This document shows positions 10,201 to 32,095 of a stretch of 64,000 nucleotides of DNA, piece after piece. The stretch is from a virus (lineage: Duplodnaviria > Caudoviricetes): IMG/VR virus record IMGVR_UViG_3300028888_000063, positions 32,001 through 96,000 of that record. One strand, given 5' to 3'. The position numbers and the translations under genes are program-made. Numbering within the stretch: position 1 is the stretch's first letter; each line of letters begins with the position of its first letter. The notes beneath the pieces are model-generated. The model was not told where the DNA came from, searched no databases, and saw only the letters and a program-made list of their open reading frames with translations.

Positions 10201-12176
10201 TTAATAATGAAGGTGGATATATCCTGTCCCCGCAGGTTGGCGCAGGACGTAAAGAGACTGATAATACTTTTACTGGTATTACTATTGGTGAGGTTTTCCA
10301 AGACCAGAACAACAAAGAAATTGGTATGTTTGGTTATTATCATGGATCTAGGAGTTTGTTCTTAGACGCGGAAACTGGTGATGCAGAATTTGGTGTTTCT
10401 GGCAAAGGACAGATCAAGATTCATGCTAGCGATGGTGAAGGCACCATTGATTCCGGTGACTATGTTTATAATCATGATAAAGATAGTTCTGGGAATTATA
10501 TCGGTAAAGGTTTAAAGATAAAATTTACTAGTACAGGTACTGGTAATGAAAAAGGCCCATATATTAGATATGGTTCTGGTAACTTTTCTGTTGATGCAAA
10601 TGGTTATTTAACAGCAAAAGGTGGAGGCAATATTGCTGGTTGGGAAATTGATGATGAGAATTTTTATAGTACAAATGGTAAAATGTATCTTAATTCATCA
10701 ACTCCTAAAATTTATGCACAAACAAGTGCTTCCGCAAAACATAATACATTAACATCGACGAATCCAGGATTTTATCTTGATGATACTGGGATGTCTATTG
10801 GTAGTATATTTAGAGTTAATAGTACAAATGATGGTAGTTTATTATTAGGTAGATTAACTAGCGGTAATAAATATTGGACTATTAATGCTAACTCAAGCGG
10901 AGATTCATATATTGCTTATAATACTAATAAATCAGTTCCATCTATTACAGGACCTACAACTAATATCCAAGGAACTGCTAATTCAGTATTTTTAGGGACT
11001 AGTGGAATTAGATTAGGAACTAAATTTGCTGTTGATGCAGATGGTAATGGTTTATTTAATAATTTATATGCCAATGGCACAGGTCAAATCGCAGGGTGGA
11101 AGATTTCTAGCACCAGTTTGACAAGTGCTGATGATAAGACATATTTAGCATCATCTGGGGATATTAGATTTAATGTAAATAATAAATTTTATGTTAATGC
11201 AGATGGTAGTTTTTCTGCTGCGAATAGTAATTTTACTGTTGATTCTAGCGGTAAAATAATGTCTCGATCTGGAACTATTGGTGGATTTAATATTGCACAG
11301 CATAAATTATATGCTACAAGTGGTAATTTAACTCTTAATGATGAAGGTTCTATTTATGGTCCAGCGGTTGGGGCTGATTATGCTTGGAAAATTGTGCCAT
11401 CAGGTCGCGCGCATTTTACAGATATTGTTATTAATAATACAGCAAATCAATCAGTTGAAAATAAATTTACTTGGACAAATAGTTCTGGACAGAATATATT
11501 TAGGTTAACAGATAGTGGTAGCCAAATTGGTGGTTGGAGTATTTCTGGTAACCAATTAAGTTCTGGTATTGTTAGTTTTAATAGTAGCGGTGCATTAACT
11601 GGTGGAGCTGTTTTATCTGTTGGACAAGCATTTGCTTTATATGGCAATGGTAATTTAAGTTCCGCGGGCAGTGCTTCATTTAGCGGTAATTTAAGTGCAA
11701 GCGGTACTGGTAATATTGGTGGGTGTACATTTGGCGGGGGCCAATTTAATTGTCCAAGTGGTGTTTTATATTTTGGTGGGCAGATGGTCACATTAAGTAA
11801 TACTGCGTTTTTAACGTCAGTAAGCCCAGAAATACATGTTAATATTGAACAACCAAAGTTTACATTTACACCTGCAGGGAATATCTCCGGTTCTGCTAGT
11901 GGGTCTATTTCTCTTGGATGTAGTGGTTCTATTAGTGGAAGTGCTGGAGATGCAGCTGTAGAAGGTACTTTTTCAGGTACTGCAAGTGGATATGTATCAT
12001 TACCAATTTCCGCTAGTTTTACGGGTACTGAGCAAATAGTTACAGCGGATAAAAATTTTGTTTATAGTATTAAAGACCTTGGTGGTATTCAATATACGCA
12101 TTTAATTCAAGCCATGCGGACTGGCAGCGATGTTACATCTCAAGTGCCAATTCATTGGAATGGTGGAGGCGGATAA
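7266..12176 (+). CDS. Large tail/baseplate protein (central spike/fibre-like) with C-terminal beta-repeat region
   Basis: 1636 aa, TTG start with AAAGGAG SD; G/S/N/T-rich C-terminus with repeated GxI(A/G)GW/FxI motifs; position after TMP. Confidence 0.7.
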   Translation: MNVAENIINAVNILIDSKTSKLQYNKTIRGQIAEVLDASIGQYKIKYQNSYFTAYSMDSNANYQKGSDVYVEILSSDFEKNALIVGTVTRLGTHYLSAIDQINNFNEVGINTVDSENVFNFCSYNGIQEQVIWQENAINQYLAAYLENNSATNRNLLIKQLTNGATVNYNGFKLDKQAVSEYAAAADTIEIGAHLQTHLESEQRVGSGNYGLKVYTMYYDAAYPNKADCELLQKVYIFDINDMTGQPYKYDAGSDQYGIYSIDSENLIGITKIVGFCNNFPVTETGHENDISISDVKVQFLEVLSEEELTSSSLRITTPYGSYFPQGADSSITKTLHAVLKIKGKKVNYNSQHVDFYWFKRNLSVFSGDKLFSPYGGNGWECLNTVKTNIDGSALSYTDFIPAGADFVVKQSLCPCEKTTFKCVAVFSDAGVSVSLNSTIIIKNYTKNYDVYLTSSMGTQFNFNSGKTTLTATGFNKVSSVNYIYYWTKSIDGGTPEYVSDNMPITEDHIQVEINDPDSEFVQYECSVFANGSLLGTAAITLLNGSNPYGHTLVIRDGTQLFKYDGYGISPTSNSLAKIDRMVIPVLTFDIYDSYGNLIDISNDEKPRRMAIKWVWPTATAATKDQTMLTTTETLRLITVPDIANDTTKTQYVVQQQSTFSYGILDRYNAVYANTDISRNNIILEVDFEGEHLVASTNFTFTKEGELGTNGTKYTARIVPVGNTEGYFILGTGTNAQLYSINAGYKGVTRKLAAGAQATIASLFTAQLWNGDNTNVTATNIKWSLASSTTRASGKLPLLTINGSYVKMNSTSGSRALSTILQAAITYRPTGSERELVIYATYAIPCVSATFTYGGNTCYPWLRDGYQEVMYESDGTRGRFNPLPFLTCMITPNGLVDVNYTSANAASGKITSTWNIQGSYNYPNEFKVEPPANFIGETVNHYITYNYSTSSALYYPVQLYLNRYGMSAMNDWDGSSIQINNEGGYILSPQVGAGRKETDNTFTGITIGEVFQDQNNKEIGMFGYYHGSRSLFLDAETGDAEFGVSGKGQIKIHASDGEGTIDSGDYVYNHDKDSSGNYIGKGLKIKFTSTGTGNEKGPYIRYGSGNFSVDANGYLTAKGGGNIAGWEIDDENFYSTNGKMYLNSSTPKIYAQTSASAKHNTLTSTNPGFYLDDTGMSIGSIFRVNSTNDGSLLLGRLTSGNKYWTINANSSGDSYIAYNTNKSVPSITGPTTNIQGTANSVFLGTSGIRLGTKFAVDADGNGLFNNLYANGTGQIAGWKISSTSLTSADDKTYLASSGDIRFNVNNKFYVNADGSFSAANSNFTVDSSGKIMSRSGTIGGFNIAQHKLYATSGNLTLNDEGSIYGPAVGADYAWKIVPSGRAHFTDIVINNTANQSVENKFTWTNSSGQNIFRLTDSGSQIGGWSISGNQLSSGIVSFNSSGALTGGAVLSVGQAFALYGNGNLSSAGSASFSGNLSASGTGNIGGCTFGGGQFNCPSGVLYFGGQMVTLSNTAFLTSVSPEIHVNIEQPKFTFTPAGNISGSASGSISLGCSGSISGSAGDAAVEGTFSGTASGYVSLPISASFTGTEQIVTADKNFVYSIKDLGGIQYTHLIQAMRTGSDVTSQVPIHWNGGGG

Positions 12177-15946: not shown

Positions 15947-18096
15947 TGGATGATTTTTTAAAGGATAGAGTTTTTTTAGATGCATTTGATAATTTGCCTG
16001 TAAAAAATCAGTTTGTTAAATTAACAGTTCTTTCTTGGAATGAAGAACCTTTAAGTGAAATTCAAGGAAAAGTAGTAAGCGGGAATTTAAATTTAAATGG
16101 TTCTTCTTCTTTAAGAAGAACAGCTAATTTGACTATTTTTGCAGAAGAAAAAGAAAATGATTTATCGCAAATAGATACTGATTTATCTATTAATAGGAAA
16201 ATAAAATTAGAAATTGGTTTTGAAAATACTGTTCCACCTTATATTTATCTTGCTTATAATGAGCAAAGTCAACGATTAGTTGAAAATCAAATTGATTATA
16301 GAGATTTATATGGTGATATGATCTGGTTCCCATTGGGAATTTATGTTATATTTGATCCGAATATTTCTCATAGTACAAATGGTGTTTCAATTACTTTGAC
16401 TTTAAAAGATAAAATGTGTTTATTAAATGGGGATGCAGGTGGAAAATTGCCAGCAAGTACAGAATTTCATTTACGCGAGCAAGAAGATGAAGATGGGATA
16501 GTTACCGTGGATGCTCCAATAATTAGACAAATTATTCAAGAGTGTGTACAGCATTTAGGCGGCGAGGATCCCGCTCGTGTGATCATTGCTGATCTAGATG
16601 ATAGATTGCGGCAGGTTGTTAGGTGGATGTCTGATGACCCATTATATTATGCACAAGCGCCAGTAACTAGCATAGATAATGTAGGCCAATCTAAATATTT
16701 TCTAGATTATGACGAAGCTGTCCGATGGGCGGCCGGAGTATCTAGCGCCAATGCGTATGATGATCTTAGCGATAGTGCGAAGAGTGAAGCAGCCGCCGCA
16801 GTTACAATTATTTCTTATGGGCAAGAAGCAGGATTTATTATGACTGATTTTATTTACCCAGGAGAATTAATTGGAGACGCAGGAGAAACTATTACTAGTG
16901 TTTTAGATAAAATAATTTCCATTTTAGGAAATTATGAATATTTTTATGATGTATATGGTAATTTTAGATTCCAAGAAATAAAGAATTATTTAAATATTAC
17001 CTATACAACACAAATGTTAAAAAATAAAACTCAATATTCTGATGCAGAGGCTAATTACATTTCGAACATGACCGGCGTCCGCAGCGAGAATGAAATTGAT
17101 TATAGTGTAGATATTACAGGAAATGAACGTGCAGCATATACCTTTGCAGGTTCTAAATTGATTTCTTCTTTTGCTAACGCGCCAAAATACAGTAATGTAA
17201 AAAATGATTTTGTAGTATGGGGAGTTAGAACTGCCGCAGATGGTAGCACTAAAATTCCTATTCGATACCATTTAGCTATTGATAAAAGACCTGAAATGCA
17301 ATGGGATGAAAGTGCTAGTGAATGGTATTATCAAGATCATGAACATATTACTTTTTATACAGATGAATATGATGTTAAAAGAGCTAAGGTTCATTTATCT
17401 ACAACAGATGCAAGTTCTGAAGGTGGAGAGACTGTAAGAACTTATGATTGGCGTGAAGAAATGTATTTTCAAGGTATTGAAGCTTCTTCTACTGGTTCAG
17501 ATTATCCTTATTATTTTACTGAATTAGTGTCAGAGTGGCCTAAGCTTTGGGATTTTGATAATCATAAATTTAAGCAAACAGTTGGTTATAATCCTGCGGG
17601 GATTGATTTCTTCTTAGACATATTGGATGAAAATTCAGAAGTGGGTAAATATAGTGTTAATAATATTGGCAGAAGAAGTGAAGTAGTCTCTGATGATAGT
17701 ATTAACTGTGTATTTGAGCAAGAGGTGCCAGATGTAGTATTTATTTCAACTGCGCAGGGACCAGAGGAAATGGAGTATATTAGAGCTGAATGTGATGCTA
17801 TTGGTCAAGAGTATATTCAGGTTGATGAGTCTATTTACAATCTTCTTTCTATTGGTGGAAAACAAAATTCGTGCTATCAAAGAGTTTGTGAAATGCTTTA
17901 TCAATTTACTAATATGAATAATTCTATTACATTGCAGACTATTCCTATTTATTATCTAGAACCAAATACAAGAATTAATGTCCAAGATCCTGCTTCTGGA
18001 ATTTATGGAGATTTTGTTATTCAAACTATCTCACTTCCTCTAACTGTTGCAGGAAATATGAATATTACTGCAAATAAAGCCTTGCAAAAGATTTAA
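15946..18096 (+). CDS. Tail/baseplate hub-like protein
   Basis: 716 aa; GNLNLNGSSSLRRT, YFYDVYGNFRFQ and IPIYYLEPNTRI motifs typical of phage tail hub proteins; coupled to upstream gene. Confidence 0.6.
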   Translation: MDDFLKDRVFLDAFDNLPVKNQFVKLTVLSWNEEPLSEIQGKVVSGNLNLNGSSSLRRTANLTIFAEEKENDLSQIDTDLSINRKIKLEIGFENTVPPYIYLAYNEQSQRLVENQIDYRDLYGDMIWFPLGIYVIFDPNISHSTNGVSITLTLKDKMCLLNGDAGGKLPASTEFHLREQEDEDGIVTVDAPIIRQIIQECVQHLGGEDPARVIIADLDDRLRQVVRWMSDDPLYYAQAPVTSIDNVGQSKYFLDYDEAVRWAAGVSSANAYDDLSDSAKSEAAAAVTIISYGQEAGFIMTDFIYPGELIGDAGETITSVLDKIISILGNYEYFYDVYGNFRFQEIKNYLNITYTTQMLKNKTQYSDAEANYISNMTGVRSENEIDYSVDITGNERAAYTFAGSKLISSFANAPKYSNVKNDFVVWGVRTAADGSTKIPIRYHLAIDKRPEMQWDESASEWYYQDHEHITFYTDEYDVKRAKVHLSTTDASSEGGETVRTYDWREEMYFQGIEASSTGSDYPYYFTELVSEWPKLWDFDNHKFKQTVGYNPAGIDFFLDILDENSEVGKYSVNNIGRRSEVVSDDSINCVFEQEVPDVVFISTAQGPEEMEYIRAECDAIGQEYIQVDESIYNLLSIGGKQNSCYQRVCEMLYQFTNMNNSITLQTIPIYYLEPNTRINVQDPASGIYGDFVIQTISLPLTVAGNMNITANKALQKI

Positions 18097-21342: not shown

Positions 21343-21714
21343 ATGTATAGAATAAAGGAAATACGTCAAAAAGATTCCGAAGGTCAATTTCCAACTACTT
21401 ATCCCATTGGTACAGATGGCACTTTAGTAGATATGCTTAGCGGCCTAGATAATGAAGTTGAATTAAAACTAGGCGGAAATCATGATAGTTATATAGAAGA
21501 AGTTAGTGATACAGTAACCAGAATTACTGAAACATATTATGATTTAGCACATGATAGAACTTATGTTTGTGTTACTACAATTACAGAGAACCAAGATAAC
21601 ACTACTACTATTGTGATCGTACTCTCTCAAAATGATGTTGAAATTAGGCGTAAAACAGTGACTATTCCTGTTGATGCTGCTACTATGAATATTAGAGAGG
21701 AGCTAGGTTTGTAA
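21343..21714 (+). CDS. Hypothetical tail-associated protein
   Basis: 123 aa; N-terminus (RIKE...YPIG) resembles the tail-fibre N-terminus. Confidence 0.55.
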   Translation: MYRIKEIRQKDSEGQFPTTYPIGTDGTLVDMLSGLDNEVELKLGGNHDSYIEEVSDTVTRITETYYDLAHDRTYVCVTTITENQDNTTTIVIVLSQNDVEIRRKTVTIPVDAATMNIREELGL

Positions 21715-22001
21715 TGAGTGCATGGCCTGAGGCAATATATATAATTAAAAAATTACAAAAATCTATCAATGAACTAGCTGATATTGATGCAGATATTGCT
21801 AGAATTGATTCAAATATAGCTGCCGCAAACCTTAGTCTTGCGGGGCTGCAAACTAGATTAGAAAATTTAGAAACTGAGAAAGATGAATTTGATAAGGTTA
21901 TGACTATTATTGATACTAATGTAGGTACTAGTCAAGCTCCTTCTCCATCAACTCCGCATAGTGTAACGCGGTATTCAGTTTTTCTTATACAAAGTCCATA
22001 A
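21714..22001 (+). CDS. Hypothetical coiled-coil protein
   Basis: 95 aa, heptad pattern, TAATG coupling. Confidence 0.55.
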   Translation: MSAWPEAIYIIKKLQKSINELADIDADIARIDSNIAAANLSLAGLQTRLENLETEKDEFDKVMTIIDTNVGTSQAPSPSTPHSVTRYSVFLIQSP

Positions 22002-22016
22002 GGAGTGATTTAACTT

Positions 22017-22277
22017 ATGGGAGAAAATAGTTCTTTAGAAAGATTAGCTGAATTAGAAGAAGAGTCTGAACAATTAATAGATGATGTTCAAACATTCTCT
22101 GATTCTATTGATGATTTTCAAGATATACTTGATGATTCACCATATGATTATGTAAATCAAAAGAAATCAATTGTAACAACTATGTCTAATCGTCAGCCTA
22201 ATTTTGTTGGGAAATACGCGGGAATGACTAATGCAGATTTTGCGGCTGGCTCTATTTGTTACGTTGTAAGTAATTAA
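22017..22277 (+). CDS. Hypothetical protein
   Basis: 86 aa with SD AAGGAG. Confidence 0.55.
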   Translation: MGENSSLERLAELEEESEQLIDDVQTFSDSIDDFQDILDDSPYDYVNQKKSIVTTMSNRQPNFVGKYAGMTNADFAAGSICYVVSN

Positions 22278-22297
22278 GAGAAAAAAGGAGATTATTT

Positions 22298-23308
22298 ATG
22301 GCAAAAATAAAAGAAGTCTCTTCTTATAATGGTACGTCATGGGATACTCCAGTACCAATAGGAGCAAATGACGCAAATATTGATATTACGTCAAGTACAA
22401 CAAACCCTACTGATACCACTTCAACTTCTGCAGGGTTAGTTGATAGTAATGTTACTGTTGCGGCGGGAGACACTGCCGCTTCCGCATGGACAAAATTTAA
22501 TAGATTTAGAAAAAGAGTGCAAAACGCATTCGGTAATTTTGCAGGAGTAACTTTAAGAACTGCATATAATACATCAAATACTAGTACTTCTGTTTATACA
22601 ACAGGTGTTATTAATAATTACATGAGTAATGTAATTGGGTATACAGGGACGACAGAGCCAAGCGCCGGAACCGTGGCCGCTCAATTAAGTTCATTAAATA
22701 GTAAAGATGCATCTCATGATACTAGTATATCTAATTTGCAAACTGGATTAGATAATGTATTTGTTTGTAAAACAGTATATAATGCAGATGATGCACCTAC
22801 TGGGGTTAGTGCGATGCCTGATGGAGCTACTAATAATCCTTTTAGTTTTTGGTGTACTATAATAACAACTTATGGGCAGGCAACTTATAAGCAACAAATT
22901 GCTATTCCTTGGGCACAAGGTGAGCAGTTTATTCTTGCTCGCAGGGTTATGGATGCTGGGACTTGGGGCGCATGGAATATAAATTATTCTACTCCTGCCT
23001 ACTACCCACTTACCCAAAATAATACTAAAATTACTGTAATTGGTGGAGGCACTTCACTTCTATTTAATAGAATGTTTTTTATCCGTGTATTATTTGAAGT
23101 AAAAAGCTCTGTTGCTAAGGATGAATCGTTATTTACATTGCCTATGCCATGTCGCCTTAATGTAGGAACTATAACTTTAATAAAACAAAATGGAGCAGGC
23201 TATGCTACTGTGGCTATACGCAATAATACAGATTTATTTGTTAATTATGGTAATGGAATTCCTTCCACAGGATGGTGGGTTTTAGACGGAATATGCTATA
23301 CTTTTTAA
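22298..23308 (+). CDS. Tail fibre/receptor-binding protein: constant N-terminus (132 aa) plus currently expressed variable cassette A
   Basis: Thr/Ser-rich N-terminus, short coiled coil, fibre-knob-like segment (KQQIAIPW...RRVMDAGTWGAW); recombination site at codon 133. Confidence 0.8.
   Translation: MAKIKEVSSYNGTSWDTPVPIGANDANIDITSSTTNPTDTTSTSAGLVDSNVTVAAGDTAASAWTKFNRFRKRVQNAFGNFAGVTLRTAYNTSNTSTSVYTTGVINNYMSNVIGYTGTTEPSAGTVAAQLSSLNSKDASHDTSISNLQTGLDNVFVCKTVYNADDAPTGVSAMPDGATNNPFSFWCTIITTYGQATYKQQIAIPWAQGEQFILARRVMDAGTWGAWNINYSTPAYYPLTQNNTKITVIGGGTSLLFNRMFFIRVLFEVKSSVAKDESLFTLPMPCRLNVGTITLIKQNGAGYATVAIRNNTDLFVNYGNGIPSTGWWVLDGICYTF
22690..22705 (+). repeat. Putative recombination site A (expression site) TTCATTAAATAGTAAA
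   Basis: Core TTAAATAGTAA at 22694-22704 encodes L-N-S-K in frame. Confidence 0.8.
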
Positions 23309-23787
23309 GGAAGCCGTCTCATAGCTATTAATATTAAATATGCATTTGTGTTATTTGTAAAAATTTTATCATCTATTTTTAAGACAGGTGCGTTAGCATA
23401 AACAGATCCATATAAATAAAAATGAGAAATAGTAGAGGGATTTGTCCAAAGTATAACAGGAATAGTAGTAGATTGATCATTATTATAAGCACTCACAATT
23501 ACAACCGATGGAGCATAAGAGAAAGTGTAAGTGCTATGTGGGTCAGCTATTGCTGTTCCACCAAAAAATAAATTTCCAAGACAAAATTGACCTGTTTTAT
23601 CTACTAGAGGATTTAACATAGTAGTACCATCTGCTGTTGTACTGGCTATATGTAATGCATAATTATTTGTTCCTCCACCTCTTCTTAATTCTGCTCTAGG
23701 TCCAGCTGTAGTACTAGTATTAGAACCTAAAGTCCATATTAACACCGGATTTTGACTAGCTGCTTTTGTATTTAAATTACTATTTAA
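23305..23787 (-). CDS. Silent tail-fibre C-terminal cassette B (160 aa, LNSNLNTKAASQNPVLIW...)
   Basis: Frame open from the repeat core, in-frame TAA immediately before it, no SD; stop overlaps the fibre stop (TTAA). Confidence 0.8.
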   Translation of the reverse strand, partial: LNSNLNTKAASQNPVLIWTLGSNTSTTAGPRAELRRGGGTNNYALHIASTTADGTTMLNPLVDKTGQFCLGNLFFGGTAIADPHSTYTFSYAPSVVIVSAYNNDQSTTIPVILWTNPSTISHFYLYGSVYANAPVLKIDDKIFTNNTNAYLILIAMRRLP

Positions 23788-23791
23788 TTAA
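23776..23791 (-). repeat. Putative recombination site B TTAATTAAATAGTAAT
   Basis: Inverted relative to site A. Confidence 0.8.
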
Positions 23792-23823
23792 CTGATAGTA
23801 TGGACTAGATTCGCTAATTTTCA

Positions 23824-23852
23824 TTGATTTTTTATAAAAAATATGTTACAAT
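23824..23852 (+). promoter_or_regulatory. sigmaA-type promoter of recombinase
   Basis: TTGATT-17 bp-TACAAT with extended TG. Confidence 0.55.
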
Positions 23853-23889
23853 ATAAATACAAAAAATGAAACAAAATTTTTTATAAAGG

Positions 23890-24903
23890 TTGGTGAAAAG
23901 AGTGAGCGACAATAGGGAAATTAGAGATGCAGTATTGCGGACGTTGGTAAGTGAAGGATTAAGCGGAGATCAGCTAAAGAATGTAGATAAAGCGTTGTTA
24001 AAAGCTTTAGCTGGATATCAGATTACACCTGCGGAGACCCATTTAGTGGAGCGGGAGTCATGTGTGCCAGAGATTATGGCGTATTTGGTGCGGAAGAAAG
24101 CTAAGGGGTTAGCTGAAACTACACTGCAGCAGTACAGCTTGACATTGAAGTATTTTGCTATATATGTTCCTAAAAAAATTAGTGATATTACTGAATGGGA
24201 TGTATTATACTTTTTAGACCAATATAAAAAAGATAGGAATATTAGTAAATGCAGACAGGATACTTTAAGGATTATTTTGAATGGATTCTTTAGATATCAA
24301 GCTGACTGCGGAAATATTAAAATTAATCCAATGGCTACAATAGAGCCAATTAAATATAGAAAAAATGAGCGGGAGCCGCTAACAGAGATAGAGCTAGAAA
24401 AATTGCGGTATGCTTGTTCTAAATTAAAAGAGCGGGCGTTACTAGAATTTTTCTTCTCTACCGGCTGCCGCGTATCTGAAGTAGTTAATGTTGATATCGA
24501 TGATATTGACTTTAATAATAAAATTTTAAAAGTGACTGGTAAAGGAGATAAGGATAGGATAGTGTGCTTAAATGCGAGTGCAGTGCTTGCATTGCAGAGA
24601 TATCTAGAATCTCGAGTAGATGATAATCCAGCATTATTTGTATCTGATAATCGCCCACACCAGAGACTTAAAAAAGAAGCCTTAGAAAAAATTATTAGAG
24701 TTCTAGGCGAAAAGGCGGAGATGGGCCGCCGCATATATCCCCATCTAATTCGTCATACTACTGCTACTTATCTTTTGAAACATAAGATGCCTCTTGAAGA
24801 ATTGCAGCAGTATCTTGGCCATGAAAATATAAATACTACTATGATTTATGCAAAAACTGACCGAGAAAGTATGATTAATTCATTTAAAAAATGTATGATT
24901 TAA
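23890..24903 (+). CDS. Tyrosine recombinase (XerC/D-like), probable shufflon invertase
   Basis: Intact catalytic set: TGCRVSE (R), GKGDK (K), HLIRH (HxxR), LGH, TTMIY (Y); adjacent to the inverted fibre cassette. Confidence 0.92.
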   Translation: MVKRVSDNREIRDAVLRTLVSEGLSGDQLKNVDKALLKALAGYQITPAETHLVERESCVPEIMAYLVRKKAKGLAETTLQQYSLTLKYFAIYVPKKISDITEWDVLYFLDQYKKDRNISKCRQDTLRIILNGFFRYQADCGNIKINPMATIEPIKYRKNEREPLTEIELEKLRYACSKLKERALLEFFFSTGCRVSEVVNVDIDDIDFNNKILKVTGKGDKDRIVCLNASAVLALQRYLESRVDDNPALFVSDNRPHQRLKKEALEKIIRVLGEKAEMGRRIYPHLIRHTTATYLLKHKMPLEELQQYLGHENINTTMIYAKTDRESMINSFKKCMI

Positions 24904-24916
24904 AAGGAGAAAGTAT

Positions 24917-25351
24917 ATGATTATTCGTTTTGGATCCAATGAATATGATTTAGTACCTGGGTCTGCTGCGCAAACTTATGATGGTAATCTTCATCTTGAT
25001 GTAGTAGCAGACGGTGTTGATTTTGAAGAATTAGAAGAAGTTTTATCTAATAGTGATAACCTTGATCCTATTAAAATTTTAGATAATGATGAAGTAGTTC
25101 AAGTTATTACTGGTTATGGTAAACTTTATGGCATTAGCAAGGAATATAATGTTCTTTATTGGATTGAGAGAATTGAACCAGAACCTGTTGATCCTGAAGA
25201 TCCAGATGCAGAACCTGGTGAACCTCAAGACATTGAACATCGTGTTGATGTATTTAGAGTGGTTCTTCGCAAGCCTGATCTTTCTGATCAAGTTAATTTG
25301 AATACTGCTAATATTGAATTCCTCGCTATTATGAATGATATCGAGTTATAA
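24917..25351 (+). CDS. Putative tail-fibre assembly chaperone (XkdW-like position)
   Basis: Acidic 144 aa ending in a short helix (ANIEFLAIMNDIEL), directly before the XkdX-like gene. Confidence 0.5.
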   Translation: MIIRFGSNEYDLVPGSAAQTYDGNLHLDVVADGVDFEELEEVLSNSDNLDPIKILDNDEVVQVITGYGKLYGISKEYNVLYWIERIEPEPVDPEDPDAEPGEPQDIEHRVDVFRVVLRKPDLSDQVNLNTANIEFLAIMNDIEL

Positions 25352-25371
25352 TTACAGGAGGATAGAATATA

Positions 25372-25512
25372 ATGCATAGTAAGAATTATGCTAAGATTAA
25401 AAAGTATTATGATGAAGGACTTTGGTCTATTGCTAAGGTTAGAGCTGTAGTTGGAAAACCTCTTGGAATTACTGCTACAGAATTTTTTGAGATCACTGGT
25501 CAGGAATATTAA
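25372..25512 (+). CDS. XkdX-family small protein (46 aa, missed by ORF track)
   Basis: MHSKNYAKIKKYYDEGLWSIAKVRAVVGKPLGITATEFFEITGQEY; SD AGGAGG. Confidence 0.85.
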   Translation: MHSKNYAKIKKYYDEGLWSIAKVRAVVGKPLGITATEFFEITGQEY

Positions 25513-25596
25513 ATTTCCTTCAGTTAAAAATCTATATTCTATGAGAGAAGAAAAATAGCACTCATAGAATTTAGTTTTTATAATTTTATATAGATT

Positions 25597-25628
25597 GCCG
25601 CTTCTCTTAATTGAGAAGCGGCTTTTTT
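25597..25628 (+). terminator. Intrinsic terminator
   Basis: gccgcttctc-ttaatt-gagaagcggc followed by T-run. Confidence 0.85.
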
Positions 25629-25649
25629 GTTTTATAGGAGAAGGATAAT

Positions 25650-26027
25650 ATGTATCAGAATGATTTTTATGCGCGGGCGCAGGTTCCGTCAAACAATATA
25701 ATCTGGGTACAAGGAATTGAAGGAGCTAAGGCCCAACAAATAAAGCCTGGAGTGACTTTATTATTATTAGATAGTGAAAATGATCAATTTTATATAAAGG
25801 CATGTGATCAATATGGCATTTGTTTGCCAATAAAAACTTTTAAATTTGAAGAAGTTGTTGCAGCTCCGGCTGTGGCTCAAGCACCTGCCGCCGCGCAGTA
25901 TGTAACAAGAGAAGAATTAACAGAAATCTTAAAGGAGTTTAAATTACAAAATGAACAGCCTATTCAATCAACTACAACCAAATACACCACCATTAAACAA
26001 CAATCTGGCTCAGATAGTAAAGAGTAG
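25650..26027 (+). CDS. Hypothetical protein (WVQG-motif)
   Basis: IIWVQGIEGAKA...LLDSENDQFYIK; SD present. Confidence 0.65.
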   Translation: MYQNDFYARAQVPSNNIIWVQGIEGAKAQQIKPGVTLLLLDSENDQFYIKACDQYGICLPIKTFKFEEVVAAPAVAQAPAAAQYVTREELTEILKEFKLQNEQPIQSTTTKYTTIKQQSGSDSKE

Positions 26028-26193
26028 TTCTGACCCAGGAATGTTATTTAAAACAATGGCTCAAAATAGTCCACAGGTTCAATCTATTATGCAGATGATT
26101 CAGGCTGCAAATATGACTCCCAAGGATTATTTTTATAAAACTGCTCAAGAGAGAGGAATAGACCCTAATCAAATATTAGGGATGTTTAGATAA
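25951..26193 (+). CDS. Small Gln/Met-rich helical hypothetical protein
   Basis: 80 aa, SD AAAGGAG. Confidence 0.6.
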   Translation: MNSLFNQLQPNTPPLNNNLAQIVKSSSDPGMLFKTMAQNSPQVQSIMQMIQAANMTPKDYFYKTAQERGIDPNQILGMFR

Positions 26194-26249
26194 TTTGTTT
26201 AAAACTGCTTTAGCAGTTTAATATATATTAAGGAGAATAATAAAACAAT

Positions 26250-26954
26250 ATGGAAAATAATGGAGCACTTAGTGCAAGTGATGTTGCATTATTAAATCGT
26301 AATAACGGTATGTCTTGGGGCGATTCCTCATTTATGTGGATTTTTGCTCTTTTGATCTTAGCCAACGGAGGTTTTGGTGGCTGGGGTAATAACAATTTTG
26401 CTAATGCTATTGGTTATGAGAATTTAGCTACTTCTAATGAAGTACAACGTGGTTTTGATAATCAAAATGCTATGGCAAATCAGCGTGAAATCCTTGCGGC
26501 AGTTAACTCTGGTACTGCTCAAAGTGTTGCTGCTACTAACCAGACTTTCCATGATACTCTCATGGCTAATCAGAATCTCTATAATGAGACTTCTAGAGAC
26601 CTTGCAGCACTCGCAGTTGGTCAAGCAGATCTTCGTGCGGCTCAGGACGCATGTTGCTGCTCAACTAAGCAATTAATCCTTGAGACTGGCGCCGGTCTGC
26701 AAGCATCTGCCGCACAAAATCGTTATGAAGCAGCTATGAATACTGCGGCAATTAATGCTAATACTACTGCACAAGTTCAAAAAGTTCTTGATGTAATTTC
26801 TAATAATCGCATTGATGAATTACAAAATAAAGTTAACCAATTAGAGTTAATGAATGCTACTGCAAATGTGGTTCGTTATCCTAACGCTTCTACATATTAT
26901 GCTGGGAACAACCCATTTTGCGGTGGTGGATGCGGCTGCGGTATGGTAGCCTAA
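26250..26954 (+). CDS. Hypothetical protein with N-terminal hydrophobic/Gly-rich segment, coiled coil and CCC motif
   Basis: FMWIFALLILANGGFGGWG; DACCCSTK; Cys/Gly tail. Confidence 0.7.
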   Translation: MENNGALSASDVALLNRNNGMSWGDSSFMWIFALLILANGGFGGWGNNNFANAIGYENLATSNEVQRGFDNQNAMANQREILAAVNSGTAQSVAATNQTFHDTLMANQNLYNETSRDLAALAVGQADLRAAQDACCCSTKQLILETGAGLQASAAQNRYEAAMNTAAINANTTAQVQKVLDVISNNRIDELQNKVNQLELMNATANVVRYPNASTYYAGNNPFCGGGCGCGMVA

Positions 26955-26986
26955 ACTGAGCGTATTTAGTACGTCTAACTGAAAGT

Positions 26987-27025
26987 AAGGGTGTGCTTAA
27001 ATGCGGCACACCCTCTTTATTTTTT
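26987..27025 (+). terminator. Intrinsic terminator
   Basis: agggtgtgc...gcacaccct followed by T-rich tail. Confidence 0.7.
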
Positions 27026-27048
27026 GAGAACAAAAAGAGGAGAAGAAT

Positions 27049-27456
27049 ATGTTACAAGTCTATACATTAGCACAAACACTCGTAGATCAACAGCCAGTGT
27101 CTTTTACTAATAGAGTTTTAATAAAAGGATGTACTGCTTCTTTAGGTGCGCCCGCCACTATAGATCTCAATAAAGCCGGAGTTTATGTTGTCTCTTGTAA
27201 TGCAACTATAACAGGCGGTGCGGCCGCAGGAGATGGCTCTTTACAACTCTATAAAAACGGTGTTGCTCAACCTTTTGCAAAAGCAGAGGCAACATTAGCT
27301 ACAGATGATTTAGTTTCTATTGGATTTGAGACTTTAATCCAAGTTCAAGAAAATAATACTCGGTGTTACATCACAAGTCCTACTAGCTTACAAGTAATTT
27401 ATGAAGGCGTGGATGCAACAGGAGATGTTAATTTGGTTGTGACAAAACTCATATGA
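27049..27456 (+). CDS. Beta-sandwich protein, BclA-CTD/C1q-like pattern
   Basis: IDLNKAGVYVVSCNAT...LQLYKNGVAQP pattern; fold is inferred. Confidence 0.5.
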   Translation: MLQVYTLAQTLVDQQPVSFTNRVLIKGCTASLGAPATIDLNKAGVYVVSCNATITGGAAAGDGSLQLYKNGVAQPFAKAEATLATDDLVSIGFETLIQVQENNTRCYITSPTSLQVIYEGVDATGDVNLVVTKLI

Positions 27457-28019
27457 CGATAGAAGAAGTATTTAAACAGATAGGTACTCATATGATTGAA
27501 GGGTTAATGATGCACTCTCAAATGTCTGAGTATTATTTGTTTTTGGGATTAGAAGGATACGCTGAATGCCATCAATATCATTATTTTGAAGAAAGTTGGA
27601 GTTTTCAAGATTTAATTTTATATTATATTAAAGAATTTAATAAGTTACTTCCAATAAGTCAAGCCAAAGATCCAGGTGTGATTTCGCAAAACTGGTATAA
27701 ATATGCAAGAAATGATGTAGATGCGGGGACCAGAAAAACTGCTATCAAAACTGGAATGGAAAAATGGATTGATTGGGAAAAAGAAACTAAAATGCTATAT
27801 GAAAATATGTATAAAGAATTACTTAATGCTGGGGAAGTGGCGGCAGCTCATAAAGTAAAAGAATTAGTATTAGATGTAGATGAGGAGCTAAGACAAGCTG
27901 AACAGTATTATTTAGATAAAAAAATTACAGATTATGATATGGCAGTAATTCTTGAAGAACAAAAACCTAAAAAAGATAAATATGAAATAGATAAACGCAG
28001 TTTATTCTTTCATAAATAA
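27453..28019 (+). CDS. Ferritin-like four-helix protein
   Basis: Helical with spaced Glu/His residues (LGLEGYAECH...EES, WEKET, DVDEEL). Confidence 0.5.
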   Translation: MTIEEVFKQIGTHMIEGLMMHSQMSEYYLFLGLEGYAECHQYHYFEESWSFQDLILYYIKEFNKLLPISQAKDPGVISQNWYKYARNDVDAGTRKTAIKTGMEKWIDWEKETKMLYENMYKELLNAGEVAAAHKVKELVLDVDEELRQAEQYYLDKKITDYDMAVILEEQKPKKDKYEIDKRSLFFHK

Positions 28020-28021
28020 AA

Positions 28022-28060
28022 ATAAGCCTCTGGGCCAATTCCCAGAGGCTTTTTCTTTTT
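28022..28060. terminator. Bidirectional terminator between convergent genes
   Basis: aagcctctggg-ccaatt-cccagaggctt flanked by A- and T-runs. Confidence 0.85.
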
Positions 28061-28559
28061 ACCAATCAAATTCTGCGGCGGCTGTGCCATGTTCAACTAT
28101 ATATGACCAGCCTATTAACACTGCATCAGCTAGATCATCATTTTTTGTATTTAGATTAAATAATTCATTAGCTTTAGCTACATCGAGCGGTTTTAGCTGC
28201 GCCCGCTTAATTCCTGGTCCTGTTTTAATTCCAACTTGCTTACGCCAATGATTAGCGCTACATAGCTGCATCTCTTTTGAGTAATGATTTAGAACTATTG
28301 CTATTGCTCCATGTGCAAAAGTTAATTTTCTATATACATCTATATTATTTTTTACGAATGCAGGTTCTGGTTCTTCTGCATATATAATATCTGGATTATA
28401 TTCTAACATTAATTCATTTACTTTTTCTGCAATTTTTTCTATGCGAGTAATTGCGTTCCCTGTTGGAGCTATAATTCCAGATGATATTAATTCTTTTTCT
28501 TTAAATATTGCATATCCTGTTGAAGTCGTAGATATGTCTAATGCTAATAAAGTTGACAT
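28059..28559 (-). CDS. ruvC: RuvC-like Holliday junction resolvase
   Basis: LALDISTTSTGYAI, YAEE, NDDLADAVLIG motifs. Confidence 0.8.
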   Translation of the reverse strand: MSTLLALDISTTSTGYAIFKEKELISSGIIAPTGNAITRIEKIAEKVNELMLEYNPDIIYAEEPEPAFVKNNIDVYRKLTFAHGAIAIVLNHYSKEMQLCSANHWRKQVGIKTGPGIKRAQLKPLDVAKANELFNLNTKNDDLADAVLIGWSYIVEHGTAAAEFDW

Positions 28560-28611
28560 GATATTCCTTCTTTATAATTTTATTTAATGAACTTTATTAG
28601 TAAATAAATTT

Positions 28612-28627
28612 TTTACTAAATAGTAAT
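28612..28627 (+). repeat. Degenerate recombination site E TTTACTAAATAGTAAT
   Basis: One mismatch to consensus; shares TAAATAGTAATTTAA with sites B and C; followed by only 14 codons. Confidence 0.55.
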
Positions 28628-28656
28628 TTAATTAAACATTTTTCAATTATATTTAT

Positions 28657-28884
28657 TTAATTTTTAGAATCGTCTGCTGCTTTTTGACCATCAAGAGGGC
28701 CGCCATAATAAAACCCAAATAATAATTGTCTTAAACAATCTGGGCAATATCCTGAGTCATGCTTCCCAGATGATGTATAGGTGCAGCCGCAGAGTTGACA
28801 AATAAGTGTGGGTGCAGGTCCTTCCAATCGGATATCACTAGAATTTTGATTGGTGTTTGCGTCTGCCGCATTAGAAAGTACCAT
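28657..28884 (-). CDS. Small zinc-ribbon-like protein
   Basis: CQLCG...YCPDC; SD GAAAGGA; own promoter. Confidence 0.6.
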   Translation of the reverse strand: MVLSNAADANTNQNSSDIRLEGPAPTLICQLCGCTYTSSGKHDSGYCPDCLRQLLFGFYYGGPLDGQKAADDSKN

Positions 28885-28913
28885 AATTATTTCCTTTCTC
28901 TTGAACTAAGTCA

Positions 28914-28942
28914 AGGATAACATAAAATTTTTATTTTGTCAA
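28914..28942 (-). promoter_or_regulatory. sigmaA-type promoter facing away from cassette C
   Basis: TTGACA-17 bp-TATCCT with extended TG. Confidence 0.6.
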
Positions 28943-28973
28943 ATATTTATTCATAACAGATATTGCGCGGGCG

Positions 28974-28989
28974 TTTATTAAATAGTAAT
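28974..28989 (+). repeat. Putative recombination site C TTTATTAAATAGTAAT
   Basis: Core at 28978-28988 in frame (L-N-S-N) with the SGNH ORF. Confidence 0.8.
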
Positions 28990-29967
28990 TTAACATATCA
29001 TTATAGGAATGTTTTAAAAGGGAAAAAATTGCTTGTTATTGGGGATAGTTGGTGTGGTTCTTGGAACGGCACGGAAAACCTTACTCCGTGGGCAACTAGA
29101 CTTGCGACTATGACAGGTGCAATATGTGAAAATCACGCTTTCCCAGGTAGTGGTTTTGTCGCTACAGGTAATTTAAACAAAAATTATGCTACTGCAATTT
29201 CTGAGCTTGACGGAGATTTTGATGCAATAATTGTTCAAGGCGGCATAAATGATATTGTAGCTAATCCGACCGCTGAAACTATTAAAACAGCAGTTGCAAA
29301 TTTTGCAACGAATTGTAGAACAAAATTTCCTAATAGAGATATTTATTTTATACCAACTACACAATGTGTACCGTTAAACATAACACAGATTCAAGTAATA
29401 TTTAATATAATGCTTGAAGCACGAAAACACTATTTAATAACATGCAAGGAGACTGCATCAATTTCTATTAGCTCACCAAATTATGCAGGAGATTTAACCC
29501 ACTTAAGTGATGCCGGCTACGATGAACTTGCAAGATGCGTTGCACAATTTTTAAGCGAAGGTACATCAAAAGTTACAAAAGAAACTATTCATTACCCCAA
29601 TAGCCCTGCTTATATGTTTTATAATATGACTCCGCCAGCAGGTATTACATGGACTGGCATGTATATTCGAGTGGAAGGCGACATTGTTAATTTCTATGGT
29701 ACAGCAAACTTTGCGAATGATACAACTGGAGATTTTGTTAAAATAATGGACGGGTTACCGCCTGCTATCGCGCCATATACAGCATCAAATTACGCTTTTG
29801 ATACATTCCCCGCAGGTTCAGATCCTGCTTTCGCTTATAGAGTTGCATTTATGGTAGGCCAAGAAATGTTTGTACAAACAATGTGGACAAACATGAAAAA
29901 TCATACTTTGTTTGTAATAGCATCATATACTACAAACGAAAATACTGAATTGTTTACAACTACATAA
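28978..29967 (+). CDS. Silent tail-fibre cassette C: SGNH/GDSL esterase domain plus beta-rich C-terminal domain (329 aa)
   Basis: VIGDSW, PGSG, QGGINDI, DLTHLSDAGY blocks; called TTG start lacks an SD; begins at the repeat. Confidence 0.8.
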   Translation, partial: LNSNLTYHYRNVLKGKKLLVIGDSWCGSWNGTENLTPWATRLATMTGAICENHAFPGSGFVATGNLNKNYATAISELDGDFDAIIVQGGINDIVANPTAETIKTAVANFATNCRTKFPNRDIYFIPTTQCVPLNITQIQVIFNIMLEARKHYLITCKETASISISSPNYAGDLTHLSDAGYDELARCVAQFLSEGTSKVTKETIHYPNSPAYMFYNMTPPAGITWTGMYIRVEGDIVNFYGTANFANDTTGDFVKIMDGLPPAIAPYTASNYAFDTFPAGSDPAFAYRVAFMVGQEMFVQTMWTNMKNHTLFVIASYTTNENTELFTTT

Positions 29968-30067
29968 AGCTTAAAATCATAGTATGAATATTATGTTATT
30001 ATTAAATATAGATAAGACAGATATTTTTGCTATTATATAGCTATAACTAATTCAATTCGTTAATATT

Positions 30068-30802
30068 TTATACCGATGCTAAATATACACATGATCCATA
30101 CCAATGGCCAGCAACTTGACCACAATACCATGGCTGTAAAGTACCTCCGTCTAAATTAACACGAGGTTGTAAACTTGTATCTGTTCGGCCACCGGCAGCA
30201 GATACAAATATAGTGCCCCCAGTGACTGGCGAAGGACAAGCGTTGTTTGCAGAAAGCTTAGCTACACCATCGCTAGAATAAGTTGAGTTTAAAGTAACGT
30301 CATAAGTTAAATGCACTATTCTCACTCCACTAGCACCAACGCTAATACTACGATAAGATATTCCACCGCTACAATATGTAGAATTAACTGCAACACCAGT
30401 TGAAGCAGTCAATCCATTTTGTATCCAGAGTTGGGCTTTTTCTGGCACTGAGTCCCAAACTCTTAAACACCAATATGCTCGTTCAAATCGAGGAGAATAA
30501 ATATTTAACCACCCATACGTAGCAGAACCCATATATGTGCAATAAAAATCTCCCACAGCTCTACCAGTGAAACTACCATCTGAACAAAAATTTTCAGTAA
30601 ATCCATCCCATATATGAAAATTTATAACACAATTACTGCCATTCCAACCAGCATTTATAGCTGCATCTCTCATTTGCGCCCAAGAATCTACCCATGAACT
30701 TAACTCAATATATGTACTTGCCCATTTACTATTTTGTAAAAATGAAACATCTGTCTGTAAAGTTGCAATATTAGAATTTTGAGTTGCATCATTACTATTT
30801 AA
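30068..30802 (-). CDS. Silent tail-fibre cassette D (244 aa, LNSNDATQNSNIATLQTDV...)
   Basis: Frame open 43 codons upstream of the called ATG back to the repeat, preceded by in-frame TAA; first 19 aa resemble cassette A (LNSKDASHDTSISNLQTGL). Confidence 0.85.
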   Translation of the reverse strand, partial: LNSNDATQNSNIATLQTDVSFLQNSKWASTYIELSSWVDSWAQMRDAAINAGWNGSNCVINFHIWDGFTENFCSDGSFTGRAVGDFYCTYMGSATYGWLNIYSPRFERAYWCLRVWDSVPEKAQLWIQNGLTASTGVAVNSTYCSGGISYRSISVGASGVRIVHLTYDVTLNSTYSSDGVAKLSANNACPSPVTGGTIFVSAAGGRTDTSLQPRVNLDGGTLQPWYCGQVAGHWYGSCVYLASV

Positions 30803-30806
30803 TTAA
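30791..30806 (-). repeat. Putative recombination site D TTAATTAAATAGTAAT
   Basis: Identical 16-mer to site B; inverted relative to A and C. Confidence 0.8.
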
Positions 30807-30816
30807 TTAATTGAAA

Positions 30817-30845
30817 TTGACAAGAATGAAAAATTATGTTATAAT
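30817..30845 (+). promoter_or_regulatory. Consensus sigmaA promoter
   Basis: TTGACA-17 bp-TATAAT with extended TG. Confidence 0.8.
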
Positions 30846-30871
30846 TTATTTAAATAATGGAGGGATTTTAA

Positions 30872-31105
30872 ATGGATTATTCAACAACAAATACTAATAA
30901 AATGACAATAGATACAAATACAGCGTTAGGAACTAGCTGTAGCTATTTAACAGGCTGCCCACATAGATTACCTTGTGGATATTGTATGATTATGAAAACG
31001 CCATGCATATCATCAACTTCTATTACATGGACTAATAATCCTACTACAATAACAACAGAAGTTAAACCTCTTTCTTCAAATTCTGCAATAGAAGTTAAAG
31101 CATAA
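30872..31105 (+). CDS. Small Cys/Thr-rich hypothetical protein
   Basis: CPHRLPCGYC; SD GGAGG; own promoter and terminator. Confidence 0.65.
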   Translation: MDYSTTNTNKMTIDTNTALGTSCSYLTGCPHRLPCGYCMIMKTPCISSTSITWTNNPTTITTEVKPLSSNSAIEVKA

Positions 31106-31106
31106 A

Positions 31107-31142
31107 TAAAAATGCGGTGTAATTAACACCGCATTTATTTTA
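31107..31142. terminator. Bidirectional terminator
   Basis: aaatgcggtgt-aatta-acaccgcattt. Confidence 0.8.
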
Positions 31143-31590
31143 TTCCGGTAGAACCAAATCCACCAGAGCCTCTATTTGTTTCATCTAAATCATCAACTTC
31201 TACAAGATTCATAGTAGGGACTTTTCTAAAACAGATTTGAGCAATTCTTTCACCATGCTCAATAGTCTGAGCTTCATTTGTATCATTATGAAGTGCTACA
31301 ATAACAGGCCCTCTATAATCTGAATCAATAGTGCCAGGAGTATTTGCGGGACGCAAACCTTGTTTGGTGGCCAATCCAGACCTTGGACGAATTTGTCCTT
31401 CATAGCCCTCTGGAATTGCCATCGCTAAACCTGTAGACACTTTCATAGTTTGATGTGGCGGAATCACTAAGCTAGAGTTAGGAGAATCCATAAGATAGGC
31501 ATAAAGATCGTATCCAGCTGCGCCCGCAGATCCCAAATAAGGGAGTTGAGCATCTTCGTAAAGTTTCTTAATTTGGACTTCATTAACCAT
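31135..31590 (-). CDS. dut: Trimeric dUTPase
   Basis: AGYDL, RPRSGLA, GTIDSDYRG, RIAQ, RGSGGFGSTG motifs. Confidence 0.97.
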   Translation of the reverse strand: MVNEVQIKKLYEDAQLPYLGSAGAAGYDLYAYLMDSPNSSLVIPPHQTMKVSTGLAMAIPEGYEGQIRPRSGLATKQGLRPANTPGTIDSDYRGPVIVALHNDTNEAQTIEHGERIAQICFRKVPTMNLVEVDDLDETNRGSGGFGSTGIK

Positions 31591-31819: not shown

Positions 31820-32095
31820 TTATTTCTCCTGTAAAATAACATTAAATTTTGTTTTTTCAAATTTAGTATTCTGATAAGTAATTATATCATCTTTTATTTT
31901 TTGCGTATAATTATTGTTACCAATGATAATAAGTTCATCAACATTTTTTTCTATGCAAAAATTAGTAATGGTGCTGCAAAAAAGAATGTTGTAATTACCT
32001 AATTCATATTTCCAAATTGCTCCTGTCTCATTATCATGTATAATAGGTTGAATATTTAAATTAACAGGACTTAATTCTATAATACAAGTTCTCAT
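31820..32095 (-). CDS. Hypothetical protein
   Basis: 91 aa, ATGA coupling. Confidence 0.55.
   Translation of the reverse strand: MRTCIIELSPVNLNIQPIIHDNETGAIWKYELGNYNILFCSTITNFCIEKNVDELIIIGNNNYTQKIKDDIITYQNTKFEKTKFNVILQEK

Follow-up and report, generated by a model that had tools for sequence, protein, structure and literature searches.

The locus between positions 22,298 and 30,806 of the window, by which we mean the whole stretch of 64,000 nucleotides that was analysed (positions 32,001 to 96,000 of the virus record IMGVR_UViG_3300028888_000063), is very likely a shufflon in which DNA inversion gives a tail fibre a different C-terminal, receptor-binding tip. The constant part of the fibre gene ends there in a short core sequence, the same core heads one expressed and three silent tip cassettes, and a tyrosine recombinase lies beside the second site. 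The locus is real and probably active in the manner of the Rin shufflon of other phages, in a new distributed arrangement in which two pairs of cassettes are separated by around 5 kb of unrelated genes. The evidence comes from the anatomy of the locus, from the places at which related genomes cease to be alike, from the joint loss of recombinase and cassettes, and from a pair of sister genomes in which the tips of the two slots have been exchanged.

Four matches to the 16-nt motif TTNATTAAATAGTAAW were detected in the window by pattern search, against 0.01 expected, and they stand at the four places given by the original prediction, which was made from the letters of this DNA. The 12-mer ATTAAATAGTAA is found at these four places only in the whole 133,655-bp genome. 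At each of them the core reads TTA AAT AGT AAx (Leu-Asn-Ser-Asn/Lys), in frame with a long open reading frame (ORF) as had been foreseen, and the elements of the switch are arranged as follows, with the motif at 22690-22705 (plus strand), 23776-23791 (minus), 28974-28989 (plus) and 30791-30806 (minus).

22298-22693, plus strand: constant 5' part of the tail-fibre gene, 132 codons, with an ATG start and a strong Shine-Dalgarno (SD) sequence (AAGGAG)
22298-23308, plus strand: complete fibre gene (constant part and tip A), with a strong ribosome-binding site
22694-22704, plus strand: core A, the expression site, TTAAATAGTAA, 11 nt, codons 133-136
22694-23308, plus strand: cassette A, the currently expressed tip, 204 codons
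23305-23787, minus strand: cassette B, silent, 160 codons from the core
23777-23787, minus strand: core B, with a TAA directly upstream
23824-23852: promoter-like site of the recombinase, its own promoter
23890-24903, plus strand: tyrosine recombinase, XerA/XerC/XerD-like, intact, with two domains, adjoining site B
28978-28988, plus strand: core C, with seven open codons upstream, including a TTG, and no SD sequence
28978-29967, plus strand: cassette C, silent, an SGNH/GDSL esterase tip, 329 codons
30068-30802, minus strand: cassette D, silent, 244 codons
30792-30802, minus strand: core D, with a TAA directly upstream

None of the silent cassettes looks independently translated, as the original prediction had held: SD sequences are absent from B, C and D, and also from the internal starts that gene callers give to B (GTG) and D (ATG). 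The three ORFs are nevertheless uninterrupted in AT-rich DNA (33% GC over the window), and no open frame of 160-329 codons arose in a base-shuffled copy of the window. At its start, D resembles the expressed tip for 18 codons (76% over 54 nt), a likeness noticed before, and this similarity reaches upstream of the first ATG of D. The silent cassettes are found in both orientations, B and D on the minus strand and C on the plus strand, and the fused lengths calculated earlier for the four tips (336, 292, 461 and 376 amino acids) are arithmetically right. Three points had to be amended. The A/B and C/D pairs had been described as head to head, but they are convergent (tail to tail), with their sites facing inward; the count of four sites holds for perfect cores, a degenerate fifth site (E) having been missed; and a 9-nt copy of the core inside cassette D had likewise gone unnoticed.

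A search with the constant part gave 42 database proteins that share the fibre N-terminus. The closest six (P0004-P0009) are 93-100% identical to it over the first 132-136 residues, and their C-termini are mutually unrelated right after LNSN, in such a way that the total lengths range from 236 to 436 residues. Tip A shares 86% identity with that of P0004, and the unrelated fibre P0051 contains a related domain; in the protein search for fused forms, P0004 and one unrelated fibre were the only places where tip A was found elsewhere. Cassette C matches PF13472 (9e-9) and the tail-fibre family phrog_5240 (6e-11), and GDSL tips homologous to it are fused to the same N-terminus in P0009 and in the more distant P0028, supporting that such tips are made as fusions. 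For tip D, the only match in the protein collection was the window's own ORF.

The clearest evidence for the switch was found in a sister lineage with the same layout, in two scaffolds of 70.7 kb (L015) and 93.7 kb (L029), the latter from another study sample. Their backbones are practically identical, with 2 mismatches in 12.6 kb: 0 in 5560 positions from core B to the distal site P, 0 in 3795 to the right of the distal site Q, and 2 in 3261 to the left of core A. In L015 a module of two tips (with KIVS and KVVT starts) sits in the A-B slot and a module of one tip (NTPQ) in the distal P-Q slot, whereas in L029 the NTPQ module occupies the A-B slot and the KVVT/KIVS module the P-Q slot, each of them turned over. 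The four junctions are recombinant, all exactly at the 11-nt core, and the module interiors differ at 1 of 543 and 1 of 352 positions, both differences changing an amino acid. Since these sister genomes are otherwise identical, the switch is real, and the arrangement is the product expected from two inversions, one between A and Q (6.5 kb) and then one between the inner pair of sites. Cassettes 5 kb away had been proposed to belong to the same switch, and the exchange between the two slots supports this directly. The distal state of L029 was found in six further contigs and its expression-site module in five contigs from other samples, while the state of L015 was found in two Logan contigs. 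Moreover, in contig L036 the same left arm is joined to both ends of one module, as an assembler gives when both orientations occur in one sample.

The few differences inside the moved modules were also examined on their own account. In L015, at 16554-16905 and 10429-10971, all three differences from another relative, L018, change an amino acid, as does the single difference per module from L029, and L015 and L029 show no differences in 9.4 kb of backbone, made up of the stretch that separates the swapped modules and the one to their right. These replacements hint at diversifying selection or a targeted change of the tips, although the numbers are small.

Close strains of the window phage show the same boundaries. 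Over the tail genes and again from the recombinase to RuvC, five contigs (L007-L011) share 95-97% identity with the window. All nucleotide similarity is lost at 22704, 23765-23770, 28988-28992 and 30791-30804, which are the positions of the cores, and these strains have nothing in common in the DNA that the cores enclose. In the Logan contigs of one sequencing run (X4), 1030 nt are replaced between cores A and B and 920 nt between C and D.

The core itself varies in step with the lineage. Three lineages share the layout, and each has its own core at every site, in such a way that only the two central bases change (AG, GA or AA). The window lineage carries TTAAATAGTAA (9-nt form AAATAGTAA) at 4-5 sites, the L015 lineage TTAAATGATAA (AAATGATAA) at 8 sites, with a recombinase 74% identical to that of the window, and the L005 lineage TAAATAATAA (AAATAATAA) at 8 sites, with two fibre genes and a recombinase 65% identical to that of the window. 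In the scanned regions between fibre and dUTPase, all core copies are in frame with a cassette or mark an empty slot. Tyrosine recombinases require identity between partner sites in the overlap region, and central bases that are uniform within a genome and variable between lineages are what is expected if they lie in that region. We infer that the rule would hold for these cores.

An intact tyrosine recombinase beside site B had been claimed as well, and the residues expected for catalysis (R194, K218/K221, H285, R288, H311 and Y320) are all conserved in it. The protein matches Pfam PF00589 (Phage_integrase) at 2e-38, has a SAM-like N-domain and resembles the Pyrococcus XerA structure (Protein Data Bank (PDB) ID 4a8e) at 1.6e-31. 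It reaches 222.6 bits against the NCBIfam XerA model, whose cut-off is 220, and stays well under the cut-offs for XerD and XerC. It has no arm-binding domain and is the only PF00589 match in the whole genome, in which no PF00239 match, and thus no serine recombinase, was found. The integron integrase signature TIGR02249 gave only 81.7 bits against a cut-off of 265. The sequence is well kept, with 97.6-99.1% identity among strains.

The recombinase and the cassettes go together. Wherever the recombinase is intact, the genome carries two cores or more, and one core invariably stands immediately upstream of the recombinase promoter. In L011 the 5' two-thirds of the recombinase gene are lost, the B core is mutated and the distal C/D slot is empty. 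In L027 and L028, which belong to another lineage and were truncated independently of L011, only the last 78 recombinase codons are left, with one core and no spare tips. A further syntenic genome, L017, lacks the recombinase, the fibre motif and the spare tips, and its dUTPase gene follows directly after RuvC. The enzyme was also considered as a phage integrase, and this was rejected: it has no arm-binding domain, no prophage copy was found, and the gene is lost along with the cassettes.

Homologues of the recombinase, 33-36% identical and annotated as 'integrase', are present in two isolated phages of Clostridia, Terrisporobacter phage TPELB_ph1 (L023, 5920-6915) and Clostridium phage phiCp-D (L024, 5911-6888). 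In both, the gene is flanked by the holin on one side and the last tail or fibre gene on the other, and a large integrase is encoded separately in TPELB_ph1. Beside these two genes, no convincing inverted repeats of the kind expected for a shufflon were found.

Taken together, the locus would work as follows. A single promoter, a ribosome-binding site and the 132-codon constant segment would serve all tips, the segment ending in the 11-nt core that also heads, in frame, the promoterless tips B, C and D. The Xer-like recombinase would exchange strands within the core, and recombination between oppositely oriented cores would invert the DNA between them. Inversion between A and B would join tip B to the constant part, and inversion between A and D, over 8.1 kb, would do the same for tip D, whereas tip C would have to be brought in by a further inversion; the geometry of single inversions for B and D and two steps for C had been worked out correctly from the start. 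An inversion between the inner sites B and C could then turn the passenger block back, and the net result would be two swapped modules. The long inversion is deduced from its end product, and the activity of the system in the window genome, the order of the steps and the effect on host range are put forward here as what the arrangement suggests.

A broader reading can be offered tentatively, and we hold it to be rather less probable than its opposite. The cores may be portable module boundaries of a distributed system, in which modules of one or two convergent tips with inward-facing cores move between slots kilobases apart, flipping the housekeeping block of recombinase and RuvC and then flipping it back. 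The modules would also move between co-infecting genomes, in such a way that the pool of tips would be population-wide, and modules with a single tip would add a tipless OFF state. Modules of the last kind were observed in L007 and L008 (10397-10828 in both) and in L018 (10418-10791), where A and B enclose a single tip and the fibre gene has its stop within the inverted B core. After a flip of such a module the fibre would end 3-31 residues past the core, which could be the OFF state.

Several observations weigh against an active inversion switch at this locus. No recombinant junction or strand-switching contig was found for the window genome or its lineage, either among relatives or in the Logan contigs of four runs (X1-X4) aligned to positions 21500-31500, bearing in mind that assembled contigs drop rare variants. 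The alternative junctions sought in relatives exist exactly at the cores between L015 and L029, and none was seen for the window's own genome. The Logan contigs of X1, the source run, show the reference arrangement only, and no listed joint changes strand at a core. Neither was a silent tip of the window lineage found to be expressed in another strain, in an all-against-all comparison of cassettes and in searches with tips A and D. Every assembly of the family (around 25 contigs) shows the passenger block in one and the same orientation, and since the inverted intermediate was not seen, the swap could have arisen by another route. Empty slots are present in L009, L011, L018 and run X3, and simple inversion cannot make them; deletion between sites in direct repeat, for example E and C in the window, is one possible source. 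In addition, recombinase activity, binding to the sites and effects on host range are predicted from the sequence, and the assignment as a tail fibre leans on gene context, the PHROG match of the GDSL tip and a lead from the ESM Atlas rather than on a confident fold. The ESM Atlas places the fibre near proteins of the YomR/XkdV type, which is a lead only, and the AlphaFold2 model has a mean predicted local distance difference test (pLDDT) score of 51, too poor for a fold search. Two contigs with unusual left flanks were also noted, one from X2 that is identical to cassette A for 458 nt from the core but unlike it in the left flank, and one from X1 with a foreign left flank before 22691.

The uniform orientation of the passenger block is what would be expected if only local flips (A x B and C x D) took place within a genome and the distal modules came to the expression site from a second, co-replicating or co-infecting genome through a double crossover at the cores, in the manner of recombinase-mediated cassette exchange; the block would then never be inverted. 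Cassettes that are wholly different among 96%-identical backbones, which imply exchange with an outside pool, and the presence of empty and filled slots together in one sample also speak for such a route. We nevertheless consider it unlikely. The swap between L015 and L029 is clean and reciprocal within a single genome sequence, and both modules are kept and inverted, a result for which exchange between genomes needs at least three events and which two inversions give directly; besides, assemblies show the majority state only, and a short-lived or less fit intermediate would be missed.

That all four cores are perfect, that the recombinase is intact and closely conserved with every catalytic residue in place, and that three silent ORFs of 160-329 codons remain open in AT-rich DNA make it improbable that the system of the window is a fossil, with leftover cores and cassettes that no longer recombine and with strain differences produced by old events and ordinary homologous recombination in the flanks. 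The lack of recombinant junctions for the window lineage and the degenerate site E would fit such a state, as would the decayed versions in relatives, yet these relatives have lost their cassettes rather than keeping them. We give hardly any credence to a third account, in which the recombinase has nothing to do with the fibre and serves as an integrase or a Xer-like dimer resolvase, LNSN is just a conserved linker at a domain boundary, and B, C and D are separate genes with internal starts. The enzyme does score just above the XerA cut-off, its homologues beside the tail genes of TPELB_ph1 and phiCp-D are labelled as integrases, and gene callers start D at an internal ATG (201 amino acids) and B at a GTG (146 amino acids). 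A protein linker, however, has no need of the same nucleotides at each site, or of a core whose changes are matched throughout a genome, and the junctions of the module swap fall inside the core. Separate genes fit poorly with the stops directly before B and D and the missing SD sequences, an unrelated enzyme with the loss of recombinase and cassettes together in three lineages, and an integrase with the finding of no prophage copy in 185,579 species genomes.

The inversion shufflon was then compared with known systems. In the shufflon of plasmid R64 (IncI1), the tyrosine recombinase Rci, which has an extra C-terminal domain, acts on asymmetric sfx sites, in which one arm is conserved, and exchanges in-frame C-terminal tips of the PilV adhesin of the conjugative pilus, encoded in contiguous segments. 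Compared by description, both systems use a tyrosine recombinase and several asymmetric sites to swap in-frame C-terminal tips, although the target in R64 is a plasmid pilus adhesin and its segments are contiguous. Xer enzymes resolve chromosome dimers at a single dif site. XerA, XerC and XerD are the best relatives of the window enzyme in sequence and structure, with the same two-domain build and no arm-binding domain, but genomes of the window family have 4-8 sites, at the heads of fibre cassettes, and relatives without cassettes can do without the gene. The many in-frame sites and the joint loss with the cassettes argue for a role other than dimer resolution.

Among phages, inversion by Gin (Mu), Cin (P1) and Min (p15B) joins one constant 5' part of a tail-fibre gene to alternative 3' parts, and Min, of the plasmid-prophage p15B, uses several crossover sites to produce many isomers (PMC6109161). 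These are serine invertases with an enhancer and Fis, whereas the window genome has no serine recombinase, and their invertible DNA consists of fibre segments only. The closest known system is the Rin shufflon from prophages of Bifidobacterium breve and Bifidobacterium longum (Mavrich et al. 2018), described by its authors as the first phage-encoded tyrosine invertase (PMC6109161) and later reported in prophages of Eggerthella lenta (PMC8778435). In Rin, a constant N-terminal segment of the receptor-binding protein is accompanied by a number of variable C-terminal cassettes that have no promoter and point either way; a short, asymmetric 11-bp repeat, rare elsewhere, stands at the head of each of them, and inversions were seen by genome comparison (PMC6109161). 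Set beside the window enzyme by description, the adjacent recombinase of Rin is likewise XerD-like and lacks an arm-binding domain. In temperate actinophages of around 40 kb, the Rin cassettes lie side by side in a single unbroken array that runs from the constant segment to rin, whereas the window family, in a 134-kb SPbeta-like phage, has two or three separate slots with around 5.2 kb of other genes between them, and the window core TTAAATAGTAA is unrelated to the Rin core TTCCCTAACCC. Thus, the window system meets the functional definition of the Rin type and differs in layout. The principle of a phage tail-fibre shufflon run by a tyrosine recombinase is already published for Rin (PMC6109161); the split layout, in which passenger genes, among them the recombinase and RuvC, keep the modules around 5 kb apart, is new, and in our literature search no paper was found on this phage family or on a split phage shufflon; papers about crAss002, long-read gut phages and Bdellovibrio fibres proved to have no bearing on it.

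The cassette pairs of the window lie around 5.2 kb apart, in such a way that C and D stand beyond eight other genes and are not contiguous with A and B. The intervening DNA encodes the recombinase, XkdX-like and BclA_C-like proteins, RuvC, four genes of unknown function and a 75-codon gene, and the remaining features of the locus are the following.

24917-28019, plus strand: passenger genes for proteins of 144 amino acids, 46 amino acids (XkdX-like), 125 amino acids, 234 amino acids, 135 amino acids (BclA_C-like) and 188 amino acids
28059-28559, minus strand: passenger gene for a RuvC-like Holliday-junction resolvase (phrog_827 at 1e-18; PF02075 in precomputed matches)
28616-28626, plus strand: degenerate fifth site E, CTAAATAGTAA, with one mismatch and followed by a 14-codon stub
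28942-28914, minus strand: weaker mirror copy of the promoter below, pointing away from C
30817-30845, plus strand: sigma-70-like promoter (consensus TTGACA-17-TATAAT, 12/12 matches), pointing away from D

At the position of site E, L007 and L008 have a perfect core that bounds cassettes, and their distal module begins there. Back to back with site E and just upstream of the RuvC start, at 28575-28598 on the minus strand, lies a copy of the left arm of site A with half of the core, AAGTTCATTAAATA, 18 nt that are 94% complementary to 22683-22700; inversion cannot copy a left arm in this way. The second in-frame 9-nt core copy (AAATAGTAA, read as Gln-Asn-Ser-Lys) is found 22 codons into cassette D, at 30734-30726 on the minus strand, and could be due to chance or be a secondary crossover point giving a shorter fusion. 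The outer flanks of the C and D sites (28907-28942 and 30817-30852) form a 36-nt imperfect inverted repeat, with one of these promoter-like sites in each copy. As the promoter-like sites point away from the cassettes, the silent tips are apparently shielded from incoming transcription.

Among the relatives, the RuvC segment of L005 is flanked on both sides by cassette modules, and L038 (IMGVR_UViG_3300028886_000140, 1770-4322) has one core and no recombinase beside the fibre gene. The RuvC gene of L038 is on the strand of the fibre, opposite to its orientation in the window family, which may be a fixed inversion of the RuvC segment. Several independent assemblies end within a few hundred bases of the slots (both L025 and L026 at 10939, L018 at 15802, L020 at 7307 and L008 at 16806), and this fits structural heterogeneity in the samples. 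In the sister lineage, too, there are contigs whose ends fall within the slots.

The source phage genome is complete according to the virus record, with direct terminal repeats. The phage appears to be distantly SPbeta-like, its DNA polymerase being 38% identical to YorL and an XkdX-like gene coming after the fibre region. All the runs that hold its sequence are from the gut of sheep, cattle or goat, the source run X1 being from sheep gut, and its host is probably a rumen Firmicute. No lysogeny gene was found in the phage, and none of 50,697 phage records matched the locus in a megablast search. Scans with the fibre N-terminus found no relatives in IMG/VR or in GTDB genomes and two in JGI metagenomes, while IMG/VR scans found one distant relative, L038, with the pattern of the A left arm plus core and none with the pattern of the B left arm.

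Tail-fibre tips decide which bacteria a phage attaches to, and a phage that exchanges its own tips can follow changes in the host surface or shift hosts, a matter of relevance to how phages and hosts interact in the rumen. This locus shows that a shufflon can be spread out: the spare tips can lie kilobases from the expression site, with unrelated genes in between, and remain usable. When genes are annotated one at a time, such tips are overlooked and the recombinase is called an 'integrase', and the locus explains why metagenome assemblies of these phages break there, a practical warning for binning. The pair L015/L029 provides a natural before-and-after example at single-base resolution, and the lineage-specific central dinucleotide offers a simple handle on the overlap-homology rule in a small recombinase with an 11-nt site.

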